64,000 bases of DNA from an uncultured Armatimonadetes bacterium (GCA_903927025.1 CAIYLG010000018.1:55105-119104), one strand, 5' to 3'. Shown: positions 48,465-56,046, counted from the stretch's first letter. Made by a program: numbers and translations. The notes: generated by a model not told the origin, from the letters alone.

Positions 48465-49160
48465 ATGCCTCTAACAAACCATGTCGAGTCGCACTTTACT
48501 GCAGGTGACACCGCGCGTGACGTCGTCATCGGGATGGCGGATGGCCTCACCGTTCCGTTTGCATTGGCGGCGGGGCTATCCGGTGCCATCAGTTCAACTT
48601 CAATCGTCGTCACAGCAGGAATCGCTGAGATTGCCGCAGGTTCAATCGCGATGGGGTTAGGAGGCTATCTGGCCGCACGGAGCGACACAGAGCACTATCA
48701 AAGCGAGCTTAGGCGCGAGCACGAAGAGATTAAAACTAAACCCGATGCCGAAAAGGCTGAGGTTGAGGAGGTGCTGCTCGACTTTGGACTCACCTCGGAG
48801 CAGGCGGCCCCGATCGTCGAATCCTTAAGTAAGAATCCTGAAGCTTGGGTCCGCTTTATGATGCGATTTGAGCTGGGGCTTGAAGAACCTGACCCCAAGC
48901 GAGCTCCTAGAAGTGCGGGCACAATCGCTCTCGCATACATCGTAGGCGGACTGATCCCACTCTCCCCCTACTTCTTTTTTGCGAAGGCCGCAGAGGCATT
49001 GCCTTGGTCTGTAGGCGTTACCTTGACGGCCCTTGCAGCATTTGGCGCGGTCAAAGGACGCTTCACAGGCGTCTCTCCCATCAAAGCGGGACTTCAGACA
49101 GTGTGTGTCGGAGGAATTGCCGCCGCGGCAGCGTTCCAAATTGCGAAATGGGTCGGCTGA
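48465..49160 (+). CDS. VIT1/CCC1-family Fe/Mn transporter
   Basis: DVVIGMADGLTVPFAL, AGSIAMGLGGYL, FMMRFELGL, YIVGGLIPL. Confidence 0.92.
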   Translation: MPLTNHVESHFTAGDTARDVVIGMADGLTVPFALAAGLSGAISSTSIVVTAGIAEIAAGSIAMGLGGYLAARSDTEHYQSELRREHEEIKTKPDAEKAEVEEVLLDFGLTSEQAAPIVESLSKNPEAWVRFMMRFELGLEEPDPKRAPRSAGTIALAYIVGGLIPLSPYFFFAKAAEALPWSVGVTLTALAAFGAVKGRFTGVSPIKAGLQTVCVGGIAAAAAFQIAKWVG

Positions 49161-49232: not shown

Positions 49233-49652
49233 CTAGCCGCCCATCATTCCCTTCATCATTGGGCACTGCATTTTGCCGGACTTCATCGGCATTTTCATGT
49301 GCGCCATCATGTGGTCCATCATCTTCGCGTCCATCTTCGCCTTCATTGAACGCATCATTTTCCGCTGAGAGATGAGCTCGGTTACCACTGCGGACATTGC
49401 GTTGACCTTGGCGTCACCCGACGCGGAATCCATCGTGCGGACAAGCCCATCGAGCTTTGCATCCATGTCCTTCATGTGCGATTTCTCCATCGCCATGTCA
49501 GCCATCATCTGCTTGCACATGGCCATCGGAGCCATCTTTGCCTGTGCAGTTGAGCCCATGTGGTGGACGTTATGGTTGATATCTTGGGCAAAGGCGGAGT
49601 AGCCGCTTGCCATCAAAAAAGCCGCTGCCAGCGTCGCTAGACGTGTTTTCAT
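49233..49652 (-). CDS. Secreted Met-rich helical protein (candidate Cu(I)/Ag(I) binder)
   Basis: Signal peptide to AFA-Q; 30 Met in 139 aa by hand count; AAGGA SD before the ATG at 49652. Confidence 0.8.
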   Translation of the reverse strand: MKTRLATLAAAFLMASGYSAFAQDINHNVHHMGSTAQAKMAPMAMCKQMMADMAMEKSHMKDMDAKLDGLVRTMDSASGDAKVNAMSAVVTELISQRKMMRSMKAKMDAKMMDHMMAHMKMPMKSGKMQCPMMKGMMGG

Positions 49653-49825
49653 TGTTCGCATCCTTGTGTGGCTCTGTCGTTTGGTTAGCCCAGTCAAATA
49701 GATGATTGGGATTCGGAGTGCGAATGCGACGAGCGCAACACCACTTCACAGCATGGGCCTCAAAACAGGGATGCGTCCAGTCTGCTCTTTCGTGTCCGTG
49801 CATCCATCACAGTGGCAACCTCACG

Positions 49826-50692: not shown

Positions 50693-50763
50693 AAGTTTTA
50701 CTTCTATTTAGCATAACTATTATGAATATTTTGCTAGCTTTCAATGCACGTAGAATGCACGGT

Positions 50764-51525
50764 GTGAAGCCAAATTCCAGTCAAGAACAGTTCGACCGGC
50801 AGTCCAAGCTCTATGCCGAGAGCCAAATCCATCTCAAAGGGCCCAGCCTCCCCGTATTGGTGGAATATGCGATGCCGCAACACACGGACCTGGTGTTAGA
50901 CATCGCCACAGGTACCGGGAGCACCGCCCTGGTGGTCGCGCCTCATGTCGATCGAGTAGTGGGAATAGATATAGCGGAGCAGATGCTTGCACAAGCTCGA
51001 ACCCTCGCGGCTGATGCCAATCTTTCCAACATCGAGTTTCAGACGGGTTCTGCTGAGCAGATTCCGTTTTCCGATCACAGGTTCGACTTGGTCACGTCGA
51101 GACACGCCCCCCATCACTTCCTGAATGTCGCAGCGTTTTTGGCCGAAGTCAGAAGAGTGCTTAAGCCAGGTGGGAGGTTTGTGATGGTCGACCAGATCTC
51201 TCCAAACCCCGAAGTCCAGAGGTGGACAAACACGTGGGAACGAACGCGAGACCCATCTCACTTTTATCAGCGCACCGTAGAGGAGTGGATGGACCTTGCC
51301 GAAAATGCCGGATTGTCATGGGTTCGGCACACGCAGGTTCCTTACCGCATGGAGTTTGCCTGGTGGGTACGACAAGCAGGTGTCAGCGCTGAAGGGATTG
51401 AGGCACTTAAAGCCCATGCTCGGAATGCTTCGCAGGAGGAAAAGAATGCAGCGCTCCTAGAGTTTGAGGATGGTGAGGTGACCGCCTTTACCGACCAGAT
51501 GCTTGTCGTAAGAATGGAACCTTAG
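50764..51525 (+). CDS. Class I SAM-dependent methyltransferase (YcgJ/YafE-like)
   Basis: VLDIATGTG, GSAEQIPF, FDLVTSRHAPHHF, RVLKPGG. TAGAAT lies 7 nt before the in-frame GTG at 50764. Confidence 0.9.
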   Translation: MKPNSSQEQFDRQSKLYAESQIHLKGPSLPVLVEYAMPQHTDLVLDIATGTGSTALVVAPHVDRVVGIDIAEQMLAQARTLAADANLSNIEFQTGSAEQIPFSDHRFDLVTSRHAPHHFLNVAAFLAEVRRVLKPGGRFVMVDQISPNPEVQRWTNTWERTRDPSHFYQRTVEEWMDLAENAGLSWVRHTQVPYRMEFAWWVRQAGVSAEGIEALKAHARNASQEEKNAALLEFEDGEVTAFTDQMLVVRMEP

Positions 51526-51584: not shown

Positions 51585-52382
51585 ATGCATCCAGTGATCC
51601 TTATCAGCATCGACGGCTTAAGACCGGACGCAATTGAAGCGGCTGGGTGTATCCACATTCCGAAGCTCGCCGAGCACGGATCGTACACCTATGAGGCGAG
51701 AACGGTCATGCCTTCGGTGACGCTCCCATGCCACACGTCGATGTTTCGTGGCGTGGACGTCGAGCGGCATGGGATCACCACCAACACCTTCATTCCGCTT
51801 GCTCGCCCTGTTCCAAGCATCCTCGACGTCGCCAACACTGCCGGGCTGAACTGCGGAATGTTTTACAACTGGGGTCCTCTTCGAGATCTTGCCGATCCAG
51901 AGAGCTTACGGGCATCCTTCTTCGAGCGAGATGCTCATCGTCCGGAAGGAGATCGCCGGGTGATGACCTATGCGGCCCAGGTTATTCCTGAGCTTAAGTT
52001 GGACTTTTCATTCGTCTATTTCGGATGGGTGGACGAGTGCGGCCACATGCACGGGTGGATGAGTCCAGAGTATCTGGCGGCGGTGAAGCACGCGGATGAA
52101 TGCGTCGGTGAGCTTCTGTCACAGATCCACCGCCAGGGCATGGAACCGCGAGTCCTACTTCTCAGCGACCATGGCGGACACGGCCGGTCCCACGGGACGG
52201 ATTCCGATGAGGACATGACTATTCCATGGATATTATCGGGGCCTGGCATCCGCCGCCAAAAGATCGAAACACCGGTACGGATCTTCGATACCTGCCCTAC
52301 TCTCGCGGAGCTGCTCGGCCTGAAGCGGCATCACTATTGGGAAGGGAAATCGCTGGCAGGATACTGCTCATCAACTGAGTAA
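51585..52382 (+). CDS. Alkaline phosphatase superfamily (NPP/type I phosphodiesterase-like) protein
   Basis: ISIDGLRPD, PSVTLPCHTSMF (Thr nucleophile), DECGH and LSDHGG...HG. Confidence 0.88.
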   Translation: MHPVILISIDGLRPDAIEAAGCIHIPKLAEHGSYTYEARTVMPSVTLPCHTSMFRGVDVERHGITTNTFIPLARPVPSILDVANTAGLNCGMFYNWGPLRDLADPESLRASFFERDAHRPEGDRRVMTYAAQVIPELKLDFSFVYFGWVDECGHMHGWMSPEYLAAVKHADECVGELLSQIHRQGMEPRVLLLSDHGGHGRSHGTDSDEDMTIPWILSGPGIRRQKIETPVRIFDTCPTLAELLGLKRHHYWEGKSLAGYCSSTE

Positions 52383-52450
52383 AGCGTGACGCCAAGCGCG
52401 TCCACGCGATGTCCGAGCGCCTCTCCTGCGAACTCACTCGTTAAAGAAGG

Positions 52451-53128
52451 CTATTTCTTTACGAGTGGTTTGAGATACGCCCCGGGGTTCTTCTTGACCG
52501 TGCCAATGCATCCTGGGCAACAAAAGTATATCGTTCGTCCGTCAATCACTGCAGAGACCGATTCCACAATGGGTTCTCCAGTCACTGGGCACGTCTTGAT
52601 TCCATCACCCTTGCCGACGAATTTGCTCAAGTTCGACACTGACTGGTTCGGAATAGCGTGCATTTTGTGCATCCCCGCCATCCCGTCTTTGACAAAGCCA
52701 TTGACCGCAATTGCGTGGGCTTGAATGAGTGCGACCACTTGAGCGTCTTGGGAGGTCTCGGTGACAACGACCCCATTTTTGGTGTTAGCAATGATCAGCT
52801 TCACTTTATCGTGATGCTCAAAGACGGCAGCAAAGAGGGGGTCCCACTCGCGTATCGGTCTGCCATCTTTAAGCCGCATCTGCATGGCGGCGACATGCTC
52901 TTTGATCAGCTTTGCCACATAAGAATCCGTGCTCTCAGTTACAGAGATGATGCCATTCTTCGTGTTCTTCGTCGTTCGCTTGACCTTGGACGAATCACCC
53001 AGCAAGGCATGGATTTTCGCCATATCCGCGGCATGCCCAGTGTCCATGTCGGCCTGCATGCCTTGCGAAATTGTAAGCGCCGCTACGGAAAAGACGAGGC
53101 CAGATGCAAGAACGCGCTGAAGAAACAT
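52451..53128 (-). CDS. Secreted protein with a duplicated His-bearing repeat and a C-terminal YHS/TRASH domain
   Basis: Signal peptide; NTKNG.....S.D..V..LI..H occurs twice; CPVTGE...IYFCCPGC. Confidence 0.8.
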   Translation of the reverse strand: MFLQRVLASGLVFSVAALTISQGMQADMDTGHAADMAKIHALLGDSSKVKRTTKNTKNGIISVTESTDSYVAKLIKEHVAAMQMRLKDGRPIREWDPLFAAVFEHHDKVKLIIANTKNGVVVTETSQDAQVVALIQAHAIAVNGFVKDGMAGMHKMHAIPNQSVSNLSKFVGKGDGIKTCPVTGEPIVESVSAVIDGRTIYFCCPGCIGTVKKNPGAYLKPLVKK

Positions 53129-53153
53129 GACTTGGCCGCAGGTTACCTGGAGG

Positions 53154-54884
53154 CTATTTTTCTACTGGAATCGATAAGCTTCGTTGCGTCCAGGGCAGAA
53201 CCACCACATGGTTGCTCAGTGCCAGTACTTCGCGAATCGGACCAGACTCTTTAGAGGCCTTTGTGGCAAGAATTGGCTCTTGAACTCCGGAAAGTGTCAG
53301 GGAGCGGTTGACTATCCAACCAAATGGCTCGATGCCTGCGCGTCTTAAATCCTCCTGCAATTTTTGCGCCTCATGAACGGGCGTCGGTTCGGGAAGGGCG
53401 ACGAGAACCACTGTTGTAAAGTTCGGATCACGAAGACGTGGCAACAGCTGATTGACAGCCTCCGGCGCATCGCTTTGGGTGCGGGTGACTTCTCGGTGGT
53501 ACGCCTCAGTGGCGTCCATGAGCAGAATGGTGTGCCCCGTTGGAGCCGTGTCGATCACTACAAACCGATCAGTTCCTTGGGCGACCGTATCCGCGAACGC
53601 ACGAAACACCGCAATCTCTTCTGTACATGGTGAGCGAAGGTCTTCCTGAAGGAGGGCAAGTGCCTCGCTGTCCATGAAGTCAGCCGCCTTTTGAAGAACG
53701 CTGGCGGTGTACCTCGCCACTTCCGTTGCCGGGTCGATGCAGGCAATTTCCAAATTGCTGGGCAAATTCCCCACAAGATCCAACACGTTTCCGGCCGGGT
53801 CCGTGGTTGTCAGGAGTACGTGATGACCGCTATTTGCAAGTTGGTGGGCAATTTGGGCGGCGACCGTCGTTTTGCCGACTCCTCCCTTTCCCATCGTCAT
53901 GACAACACCGTGTCCGGCACGAGCGAGCTCTTCTACGAACTGGGCAAACTTCATATTCAAGGACGGAAACGAGAGTTCCGATTCTGGAGCGCAAGCCACA
54001 TCGGTATCGTCGAGAATCGACCTAAGTGCCTCTATCCCAACAACGTTGCCGGCCAGCATCGGCACAAGGGATACGGGAAGACTCTTCAGAGTGCTCGGCA
54101 TCGATTGAAGCCCATCCTCCATGACGCCTGCAAAGGCTTGAGCTACCGGATCCGTCGTCGGACCAGGGCGAAAAACAGCATTGACGATCATCCGCAAATT
54201 TCGAATCCCAAGGTCAGCCAGCTCCACTTGCGTGCGAGCGGCTTCCTTAAGACTCGGCCTCTCTGCCCTAGCCACCAGGACAACCGTTGTCTCACTCGGA
54301 CTCGCGAGCCGGTCCAGAGCATTCTTGTAGAGGATGCGCTGGTCTTTCAGACCAGCAAGTGGTCCAAGACAGCTCGCTTCGGCGGTCGTCGTGTTCAAGT
54401 ATCCGCTCCAAGCACTCGGCAAACTTAGGAGTCGCAGAGTGTGGCCGGTTGGGGCCGTGTCGAAAACGATGTGGTCAAACGACTCCGTTGCTTCGGGGCT
54501 AGCCATCAGCCTTACGAATTCATCGAACGCCGCGATTTCAGTGGTGCAGGCTCCTGAGAATTGCTCTTCCATGTTTCGGATGACAGCATCGGGCAGCTTT
54601 CCACGATAAGGCCCTACTACCTTTTCGCGGTAACCCGCTGCGGCAGCTTCCGGATCGAGATTCGCTCCGAAAAGACCTGGAACCTGCGGTATCGGCGTTG
54701 GCTGGGTTCCCAGCGAAACCCCAAACACTTCGTCGAGATTGCTTGCGGGGTCGGTACTGACAATGAGGGTCTTCTTTCCCGACTCGGCCAGCCTCAGAGC
54801 CGTGGCGCACGCAAGCGAAGTCTTGCCAACTCCACCCTTGCCGGTAAAGAAGAGGTTTCTCGTCCTCAGCCCGTCAGTCCACAT
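53154..54884 (-). CDS. arsA: Arsenical pump-driving ATPase
   Basis: Two GKGGVGKT and two DTAPTGH motifs; metalloid-site Cys in SGACTTEI, ASCLGP and SPCTEEI. ATG at 54884 follows the arsD stop. Confidence 0.95.
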   Translation of the reverse strand: MWTDGLRTRNLFFTGKGGVGKTSLACATALRLAESGKKTLIVSTDPASNLDEVFGVSLGTQPTPIPQVPGLFGANLDPEAAAAGYREKVVGPYRGKLPDAVIRNMEEQFSGACTTEIAAFDEFVRLMASPEATESFDHIVFDTAPTGHTLRLLSLPSAWSGYLNTTTAEASCLGPLAGLKDQRILYKNALDRLASPSETTVVLVARAERPSLKEAARTQVELADLGIRNLRMIVNAVFRPGPTTDPVAQAFAGVMEDGLQSMPSTLKSLPVSLVPMLAGNVVGIEALRSILDDTDVACAPESELSFPSLNMKFAQFVEELARAGHGVVMTMGKGGVGKTTVAAQIAHQLANSGHHVLLTTTDPAGNVLDLVGNLPSNLEIACIDPATEVARYTASVLQKAADFMDSEALALLQEDLRSPCTEEIAVFRAFADTVAQGTDRFVVIDTAPTGHTILLMDATEAYHREVTRTQSDAPEAVNQLLPRLRDPNFTTVVLVALPEPTPVHEAQKLQEDLRRAGIEPFGWIVNRSLTLSGVQEPILATKASKESGPIREVLALSNHVVVLPWTQRSLSIPVEK

Positions 54885-54885
54885 T

Positions 54886-55272
54886 TCAACAGCACCCTTC
54901 TTCCTCGGAGTCGCAACACTTGGAGCTAGCCATTTTGAGTGTAGTTCGTGGCTTGTCGGATGCAGTTTCAGCCTGAATTCCAAACCAAGACGCGAGTTCA
55001 AGACGTGATGGGTAGCTGGCCTTCGCTTTGATTTCGCCATCAAGGATAAAAATGGGAAGGTTCTCCGCCTCTGAGCCCATCTCGGACAGGATTTGCGGGT
55101 TCGCAGTAAAGGCCTCTGGCTGATGTCCAAGGTTGAAACGCTCCACTGAAACACCTCGGCTCTTCAGGAAGGCGACATCGGCGGCGAGCTTCACCAGTTT
55201 TGGGTCAACGCTCGGGCCGCAGACACCGCTGGAGCAGCACATAGCAGGGTCGTAAATCTTGAGTGTTTTCAT
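54886..55272 (-). CDS. arsD: Arsenite metallochaperone
   Basis: IYDPAMCCSSGVCGPSVDP.L, VERFNL; C-terminal CC..CC; ATGA overlap with arsR. Confidence 0.95.
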   Translation of the reverse strand: MKTLKIYDPAMCCSSGVCGPSVDPKLVKLAADVAFLKSRGVSVERFNLGHQPEAFTANPQILSEMGSEAENLPIFILDGEIKAKASYPSRLELASWFGIQAETASDKPRTTLKMASSKCCDSEEEGCC

Positions 55273-55646
55273 TTCTTGCCTCCGATGGGATCGAGACTTT
55301 GAGCTTCGACGCATGTTCCAAGAACCGCATCGGATTGGGCCTGGAGATAGTCACGCATGACCTGAATGGCTTCGCGCCGAACGGAACACACCATAAACTT
55401 GCCGTTCTTTTCGGCATTGATCAGCCCAGCCAGTCGCAACTCTTTGAGATGGAACGACACCGTCGAGCTGAATTGCTCACTACCGGTCACGTGGCAACAG
55501 ACTGCCCCAACCGTAACTCCCTGCACAGGTCGAACGTCTCCCAGGTCATCGAGGGCAACGGGGCAGCAATTTGAGCAAAGGAATTCGAAGATGCGTGCCC
55601 TCGTCGGGTCTCCCAGTGCTTTAAACATCAGGACGGGCGATTCCAT
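55269..55646 (-). CDS. arsR: ArsR/SmtB family repressor
   Basis: FKALGDPTRARI, STVSFHLKELRLAGLI; CSNCC and VCCH. TATGCT lies 6 nt before the ATG. Confidence 0.88.
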   Translation of the reverse strand: MESPVLMFKALGDPTRARIFEFLCSNCCPVALDDLGDVRPVQGVTVGAVCCHVTGSEQFSSTVSFHLKELRLAGLINAEKNGKFMVCSVRREAIQVMRDYLQAQSDAVLGTCVEAQSLDPIGGKK

Positions 55647-55659
55647 ACCTGGAGCATAC

Positions 55660-55691
55660 CACTACATATCGAGATATCTAGATATATAGTG
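55660..55691. promoter_or_regulatory. ArsR operator
   Basis: 32-bp imperfect palindrome CACTACATATCGAGATATCTAGATATATAGTG (28/32 symmetric); core ATCGA-N6-TAGAT resembles the ArsR/SmtB ATCAA-N6-TTGAT box; abuts the -10 box. Confidence 0.8.
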
Positions 55692-55776
55692 GAGATTCGG
55701 GGTGCATTACCTTTGCTGGTTGTCAGTAGAAAGCAAAGTCGCCAATTCTACGCACAGAGCGTGATATGATTCGCGC

Positions 55777-56046
55777 GTGAACAAGACGTTTTCTGCGACC
55801 CTCCTGAAGGACAAGGATAAAGAAAAGGGTGGTTGGACCTACATCATCTGGTCTGATTCAGCAGCGTTCTTCGGAACAAAGAAGCCTGTTAAGGTGAAGG
55901 GAACGATCGACGGGGTCGAGTTCCAAACCACATTTCTTCCTGTGGGAGATGGAACTCACCTGTTGCCGGTTAAGGCTGCCATCCTGGCAGCAGTCAAGAA
56001 GCAACAAGGGGATGAAGTTGTTGTGTGCCTGACGGACCGATTGTAG
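55777..56046 (+). CDS. DUF1905 family protein
   Basis: GGWTYI, VKVKGTIDGVEFQTTFLPVGDGTHLLPVKAAI. TATGAT lies 6 nt before the GTG. Confidence 0.85.
   Translation: MNKTFSATLLKDKDKEKGGWTYIIWSDSAAFFGTKKPVKVKGTIDGVEFQTTFLPVGDGTHLLPVKAAILAAVKKQQGDEVVVCLTDRL

Follow-up and report, generated by a model that had tools for sequence, protein, structure and literature searches.

The window analysed here, a 64,000-nucleotide stretch from an uncultured Armatimonadetes bacterium (G000:C18:55105-119104), contains an arsR-arsD-arsA arsenic-resistance cassette in a genome that lacks both Acr3 and ArsB. ArsA is the textbook ATPase that converts a secondary carrier into a primary pump, and to our knowledge every function demonstrated for it requires one of these two carriers. 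Our analysis makes it reasonably likely that the window holds a canonical ArsR/ArsD/ArsA cassette, lying beside an unrelated gene, which is still used and feeds a carrier beyond current models. Because the pump-less state recurs among related genomes, arsA is under selection, and one relative (G376) carries an operon in which arsD and arsA are joined to a channel gene, ArsD and ArsA probably serve an unrecognised carrier. The source assembly is a metagenome bin of 5.25 Mb in 66 contigs, with a completeness of ~98.4%; the sequencing runs listed for it are lake or freshwater metagenomes, all labelled DNA, some of the labels being guessed.

An intact arsRDA cassette in a genome without Acr3 or ArsB

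Four collinear genes on the minus strand, arsR, arsD, arsA and a gene for a YHS-like protein, lie exactly where an earlier note, made from the sequence alone, had placed them. That note had read into the locus an operator, a leaderless-type promoter, a repressor, a chaperone with an intact CC..C site and a full two-domain ArsA with three metalloid cysteines, and all of these are seen here, the chaperone and ArsA being borne out by profile scores and by alignments to the solved proteins 3mwh, 9nbl and 1f48. ArsA, a two-domain As(III)-stimulated ATPase of 576 residues (53154..54884, minus strand), scores 754.3 bits against the equivalog model TIGR04291 (cut-off 650) and covers profile positions 3-563 of 565. 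Pfam ArsA_ATPase matches both halves, each of which contains GKGGVGKT and DTAPTGHT, and the protein aligns to the solved ArsA proteins 9nbl and 1f48 at 580 and 536 bits. The metalloid-cysteine blocks are conserved in these alignments (GACTTEIAAFDEF, EASCLGPLAGL and SPCTEEIAVF), and we take their three cysteines to correspond to Cys113, Cys172 and Cys422 of R773 ArsA. The As(III) metallochaperone ArsD (128 residues; 54886..55272, minus strand) matches PF06953 (E 3.6e-41) and NF033727 (112.9 bits, cut-off 90) and keeps Cys12/13/18, its MCCSSGVCG aligning to MCCSTGVCG of the solved ArsD 3mwh. Its start codon overlaps the arsR stop codon (ATGA) and has GGAGG upstream.

Whole-genome profile searches detected no Acr3, ArsB, ArsP or Grx-type ArsC in the window or in the remainder of the G000 assembly. 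Neither TIGR00832 nor PF02040 gave a match in G000 at E<=0.001, the ArsP model PF03773 was likewise without a match, and tblastn of the genome with Acr3 from the relative G034 returned a best E of 1.5, not even fragments. The ArsB or Acr3 that a complete ArsAB or ArsA-Acr3 efflux pump needs is missing from the genome. The earlier note's statement that no permease or reductase lies in the window extends, by these profile and tblastn searches, to the whole assembly, and the missing ArsA carrier to which it drew attention is a real puzzle. Two candidates for other arsenic-related enzymes were rejected. The sole LMWPc protein in G000 is Wzb-like rather than an ArsC, and a 267-residue methyltransferase near the locus (50722-51525) is not an ArsM, because the true ArsM is encoded on another contig, C33 (350 bits against NF008823, cut-off 263); the two are 35% identical over 127 residues.

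The regulator, an ArsR/SmtB-family protein of 125 residues (55269..55646, minus strand), falls just below the thresholds of its family models, with 52.3 bits against NF033788 (cut-off 55), 25.4 against 27 for Pfam HTH_20, and a score likewise just below the cut-off for HTH_5. Contig C33 encodes two paralogues, 65% and 57% identical to it, the closer of which reaches 56 bits against the cut-off of 55. Among the arsRDA loci of the phylum, an arsR homologue stands ahead of arsD in all 15 loci other than that of the window, and arsR is the first gene in 16 of 16. Compared with R773 ArsR, the window protein has an insertion and CC pairs at positions 26-27 and 50-51, and its promoter appears leaderless. 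Within the promoter/operator region (55647..55690, minus strand; read from the sequence), we noticed a 20-bp imperfect palindrome, CTATATATCTAGATATCTCG, at 55689-55670 and a -10-like TATGCT at 55658-55653 that ends 6 nt before the arsR ATG, suggesting a leaderless or near-leaderless start. A genome-wide scan with the operator consensus CGATATTTCTAGAAATATCG ranked exactly the three arsR promoters as its top three sites, with 1, 3 and 4 mismatches, and returned no further regulon member, in particular no transporter. From these matches, the regulon appears to consist of arsRDA and an arm on contig C33 that encodes ArsM and a channel, with no further transporter. The -10-like hexamers TATGCT, TAGAAT and TATCCT are found at exactly 6 nt before the ATG of the three arsR genes (window 55653-55658; G000 C33 upstream of 42229 and of about 40900), none of which has a Shine-Dalgarno sequence, and this arrangement suggests leaderless arsR transcripts in the lineage.

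Pump-less ArsA recurs across the phylum and is under purifying selection

A survey of the phylum for ArsA yielded 16 ArsA-bearing genomes, G000 included, and 15 other arsRDA loci for comparison with the window. Nine of the 16 genomes are without Acr3 and ArsB (G000, G017, G084, G172, G325, G344, G349, G379 and G376), and we refer to these as pump-less; the assemblies of three of them, G349, G325 and G172, comprise 2, 4 and 6 contigs and are 99% complete. In G006, G274 and G278, acr3 is found on a different contig from arsRDA. Clustering of the genes around arsA in the 16 genomes revealed no membrane protein common to the pump-less loci, where the only recurrent neighbours were arsR, arsD and a YfcE-type phosphoesterase.

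The gene order of the window locus, MOSC-DUF1905-arsRDA-YHS-phosphodiesterase, is shared by a second strain, and the YHS proteins of the two have 98% identity. The arsA of this second strain differs from the window copy by 18 synonymous and 9 non-synonymous substitutions, giving a ratio of non-synonymous to synonymous substitution rates (dN/dS) of 0.16 (binomial p 6e-6). Between the pump-less congeners G084 and G172, the dN/dS of arsA is 0.08, and synonymous sites are almost saturated. Purifying selection acts on arsA in a pump-less setting, and the decay of a remnant is therefore unlikely.

Pump-less genome G376 has a tight arsD-arsA-arsC-MIP operon, with gaps of 24 and 39 bp, and an ars-type NIP-like channel occurs in three pump-less genomes altogether (G000, G017 and G376). 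A MIP-family protein is present in all nine pump-less genomes and missing from four of the seven Acr3-bearing ones. Since the MIP in six of the pump-less genomes is distant (34-40% identity) and has no ars gene within 1.5 kb, we treat the channel link as a lead, not a result.

Other arrangements were seen at single loci or pairs of loci. The order arsR-arsM-arsD-arsA is found in G278 (L134:7885-9180) and G333 (L135:12767-11490), where a simple open reading frame call joined arsM and arsD in one frame of 444-460 residues, the two being fused or merely abutting. In G349 (L129:11882-16799), arsR-arsD-arsA is immediately preceded, in the same orientation, by genes for a MacB-like ABC permease (804 residues), its ATPase and a 594-residue fusion-type protein, an arrangement not seen at the other arsRDA loci. 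In 8 of the 16 ArsA-bearing genomes, an ars cluster includes, immediately behind arsA, acr3 or arsC, a gene for a YfcE-family metallophosphoesterase of ~250 residues, 63-78% identical between genomes (L018, L019, L127, L130, L132, L135, L136 and G000 C33:39790-40554); we know of no arsenic-handling role for this family.

ArsA is sporadic in the phylum: 4 of the 61 close relatives encode it, as do 13 of the 401 genomes sampled. The sister locus, in G034, reads arsR-arsD-arsA-acr3, with ArsA 81% and ArsR 85% identical to the window proteins, and the two ArsA sequences group together with support of 98/95. As the G034 locus continues with acr3, it is the carrier gene that is missing at the window locus. 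DNA homology between the two is limited to 53189-55687, a stretch that runs from the operator through nearly all of arsA, and the flanks differ, which indicates that the ars unit moved as a cassette and that acr3 was either lost or never received.

A second ars cluster encodes ArsM and a NIP-like channel

Outside the window, at C33:37189-42229, G000 carries a second ars cluster with the order arsR-arsM-arsR-YfcE-type metallophosphoesterase-NIP-like aquaporin. The channel matches TIGR00861 (E 1.2e-47) and has two NPA boxes, NPAVT and NPARS; its closest solved relative is rice NIP2;1, ahead of AqpZ. It is the only membrane protein in its ArsR-headed cluster, as in the AqpS-type, MIP-only arrangement. 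Orthologues adjoin arsR, arsM or arsC in G006, G017 and G376, and a tblastn search of plasmids with the channel gave nothing at 1e-30. A gene for a 627-residue P1B-type ATPase, with a TPCP motif in its transmembrane region and no N-terminal metal-binding domain, converges on the C33 cluster; it is not kept beside the orthologous cluster of G006.

Ars operons with a MIP as the sole transporter are documented (PMC4435449, PMC6205960). Like the arsR-aqpS-arsC-arsH operon of Sinorhizobium meliloti, the C33 cluster has a MIP as its only ars-linked membrane protein, and the same holds for the arsR-arsC-MIP units of G017. The C33 channel differs from the AqpS systems in being NIP-like and in its pairing with ArsM rather than ArsC; moreover, G000 also keeps ArsD and ArsA, for which AqpS has no known need.

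The YHS-like neighbour belongs to a family associated with envelope efflux

The gene that follows arsA encodes a putatively exported YHS/TRASH-like protein of 225 residues (52451..53128, minus strand) with a predicted leader, two repeats and a C-terminal Cys4 module. The intervening 25-bp spacer (53129..53153, minus strand) contains TAACCT 11 nt before the YHS ATG and, by inspection, neither a Shine-Dalgarno sequence nor a terminator; a scan of 52200-56000 for sigma-70 promoters and terminators gave results no better than shuffled sequence, with nothing in the arsA-YHS gap. The spacer is identical in the related strain. A misassembly at the arsA/YHS junction was rejected, as independent contigs from three studies cross it.

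The protein begins with MFLQR, a hydrophobic run (VLASGLVFSVAALTI) and SQG; its residues 1-27 are unstructured in the AlphaFold model (predicted local distance difference test, pLDDT, 86), and its homologues have similar leaders. Two helix-hairpin-helix repeats with conserved His and Met residues precede a C-x22-CC-x2-C module, whose cysteines C180, C203, C204 and C207 are invariant in the family alignment. Against the YHS/TRASH models PF04945 and PF24273, the protein alone gives a weak TRASH match below the cut-off (E 0.006), and Pfam YHS matches are found in 18 of 25 aligned family members, the best at E 9.4e-6. The best PDB sequence match in a profile search is the YHS region of phenol hydroxylase, at a marginal E of 0.38, and a fold search of the model against the PDB, repeat domain included, gave no match at E<=0.001.

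We collected 207 homologues, mostly from Acidobacteriota (Blastocatellia) and Armatimonadota. Of the 45 loci with a full-length copy, 25 have the gene at most 300 bp downstream of an RND permease gene and on its strand, in an order of outer-membrane protein, membrane-fusion protein, RND permease and YHS protein (OMP-MFP-RND-YHS). Other recurrent neighbours are ABC tripartite efflux genes, DUF302, thioredoxin, OsmC, an MBL-rhodanese protein and ArsR-family regulators. The setting is not uniform within Armatimonadota: the gene accompanies a MacAB-like system in G006, MerR and CDF genes in a genome of the Chthonomonadaceae, and sugar hydrolases in one of the Fimbriimonadaceae, where it also adjoins the same phosphodiesterase gene as at the window locus. 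The RND-YHS pair is often followed by a 318-residue protein without an NCBIfam match and the MBL-rhodanese protein (loci L029-L078, for example L004:1359-8747).

The earlier note had proposed that the YHS protein might receive or sequester arsenic delivered by ArsD and ArsA, and had asked whether the arsRDA-YHS arrangement recurs. It does not: the YHS gene is found at none of the 15 other arsRDA loci of the phylum, and ArsA, ArsD and Acr3 at none of 80 YHS-family genome loci, one apparent ArsA match having been rejected as it spans 96 residues of one ATPase half. The family instead goes with tripartite efflux. A hand-off is also unlikely because As(III) on a cytoplasmic ATPase can reach an exported protein only by way of a membrane carrier. 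We conclude that the YHS-like gene is a resident neighbour and not part of the ars unit; given the 25-bp gap without a terminator, this gene would at most be passively read through from arsA. Since its family normally follows the RND permease in tripartite operons, the protein most probably serves envelope efflux as a periplasmic metal-binding accessory. The family is comparable to the CusF-type periplasmic metallochaperones of CusCFBA systems in that its members are small and exported, have conserved Met, His and Cys residues, and have their genes within OMP-MFP-RND operons or as the last gene of these. The YHS family differs from CusF in having no sequence or fold similarity to it and a repeat domain without a PDB match, and the window copy is an orphan with no adjacent RND system. 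The family represents an uncharacterised, structurally unmatched RND-operon accessory, found mainly in Acidobacteriota in our sample.

Elsewhere in the window, a gene at 49233-49697 (minus strand) encodes an exported protein of 154 residues without a Pfam match, in which Met and His are highly abundant (with runs of the MxxM type) and which ends in MKMPMKSGKMQCPMMKGMMGG. The gene adjoins those for a LysR regulator and a VIT1-family iron/manganese transporter (48465-49160), and its product may be a periplasmic binder of the Cu(I)/Ag(I) type.

Discussion

The window cassette shares with R773 arsRDABC and with arsRDA-acr3 operons an ArsR with a palindromic operator, Cys12/13/18 of ArsD, the order arsR-arsD-arsA and a two-domain ArsA in which the P-loops and DTAPTGH signatures of both halves are kept along with the three metalloid cysteines; it differs from them in that ArsB, Acr3, ArsP and ArsC are missing from locus and genome alike. 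We infer that ArsD and ArsA continue to be used and feed As(III) to a membrane carrier unlike Acr3 or ArsB. In such a scheme, ArsR would repress transcription from the 20-bp palindrome overlapping the leaderless-type promoter and would be released by As(III). ArsD would take As(III) on Cys12/13/18 and hand it to the three-cysteine site of ArsA, and the two proteins would together feed it to a carrier not recognisable as Acr3 or ArsB. The cassette, having moved horizontally, would abut an unrelated resident YHS gene, and the C33 cluster would share in arsenic handling, with methylation by ArsM and a NIP-like aquaporin as a downhill exit for As(OH)3 or methylarsenite. For Fimbriimonadaceae-like Armatimonadota in general, we advance only tentatively the idea that ArsD and ArsA are selected and work without Acr3 or ArsB, coupled either to an unrecognised carrier or to the NIP-like aquaporin/ArsM arm.

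Several points weigh against a carrier beyond current models. No candidate protein emerges for the membrane step of ArsA, and in a metagenome bin of 66 contigs a carrier could possibly reside on an unbinned island or plasmid. The 25-bp same-strand gap between arsA and the YHS gene, without a terminator and kept in the second strain, makes co-transcription or an arsenic-linked role of the YHS protein possible. Both the sharing of the operator and the regulation are read from sequence only. Finally, the term pump-less refers to Acr3 and ArsB, and ArsP and ArsK/ArsJ-type MFS carriers were not searched for in the eight pump-less genomes besides G000.

Several alternative explanations were weighed. 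One, which we judge rather unlikely, is that ArsD and ArsA work with the NIP-like aquaporin or with ArsM, by docking on or gating the channel, by raising local As(III), or by chaperoning it to the methyltransferase. The G376 operon, in a genome without Acr3 or ArsB, is consistent with such a coupling, as are the arsRDA genes and ars-linked MIPs that occur together in G000 and G017 without either carrier, the presence of a MIP in every pump-less genome when four of seven Acr3-bearing genomes have none, the similar operators at the window arsR and both C33 arsR genes, and the position of arsM directly before arsD-arsA in G278 and G333. However, no known mechanism energises a channel, and the papers we consulted report no physical contact between ArsA and a MIP or between ArsD and ArsM. 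Six pump-less genomes have only a distant MIP unlinked to ars genes, the presence pattern of MIPs is confounded by phylogeny, and the G376 assembly, just 89% complete, is split into about 1060 contigs. The carrier might also be missing from the bin, with acr3 or arsB on an unbinned island or plasmid and acting in trans as in G006, G274 and G278. Accessory islands are often lost in binning, G000 is itself such a bin, and acr3 is on a separate contig from arsRDA in those three relatives; nevertheless, this is unlikely given the 98.4% completeness of G000, the assembly of pump-less G349, G325 and G172 in so few contigs, and the failure of G034 Acr3 to detect even fragments by tblastn. The earlier note's suggestion of a partner in trans holds insofar as a second cluster with a similar operator exists elsewhere in the genome, but that cluster holds a channel and ArsM and neither Acr3 nor ArsB.

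That arsRDA is a functionless remnant, left after the loss of acr3 and not yet in decay, would agree with the position of acr3 directly after arsA in G034 and with the lack of a known partner in the G000 genome. We disfavour this as improbable, as the three reading frames are intact with all key residues kept, the pump-less state recurs in 9 of 16 genomes, and the dN/dS of arsA is low both within the pump-less lineage (0.16, p 6e-6) and between G084 and G172 (0.08, synonymous sites being close to saturation). It is more improbable still that the YHS protein acts as a partner specific to this lineage, with its expression driven by the ars promoter and its Cys and His residues serving as a periplasmic sink or relay for arsenite. 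Its gene follows arsA in the same orientation, with 25 bp and no terminator in between, the gene order is kept in the second strain, four Cys and several His and Met residues are conserved, and the gene has a dN/dS of 0.20. Against this, the link is absent from 15 other arsRDA loci and 80 YHS loci, the family is usually accompanied by genes for RND or ABC tripartite efflux, by DUF302 and by thioredoxin, and only through a carrier could As(III) on cytoplasmic ArsA reach an exported protein. The protection gained from stoichiometric binding would be small. Unlike arsD and arsA, the YHS gene has no Shine-Dalgarno sequence before its ATG, and close relatives have a -10-like hexamer just before the ATG, which fits a start of its own.

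A canonical cassette that feeds a carrier beyond current models would not be the first ArsA found without a recognisable carrier. The arsADRC genes on pNRC100 of Halobacterium sp. NRC-1 presumably encode a true ArsA, together with ArsD and ArsR, with no recognisable carrier gene beside them. Castillo and Saier reported in 2010 that 2 of 24 true (cluster-1) ArsA proteins come from genomes without a known carrier (PMC2963123). The genomes described here resemble these precedents in having a true ArsA without a recognisable adjacent carrier; they differ in that the state recurs in 9 of 16 genomes of one phylum and that purifying selection has been measured. For metagenomic surveys of arsenic cycling, this calls for caution, in that the presence of arsA does not equal ATP-driven arsenite efflux. 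More than half of the ArsA-bearing genomes of this lineage, several of them nearly closed, are without Acr3 and ArsB, yet their arsD and arsA are intact and strongly selected, and the lineage makes the long-standing puzzle of a carrier-less ArsA accessible to concrete tests. If true, the action of ArsD and ArsA without Acr3 or ArsB would be a new mode of ArsA action.

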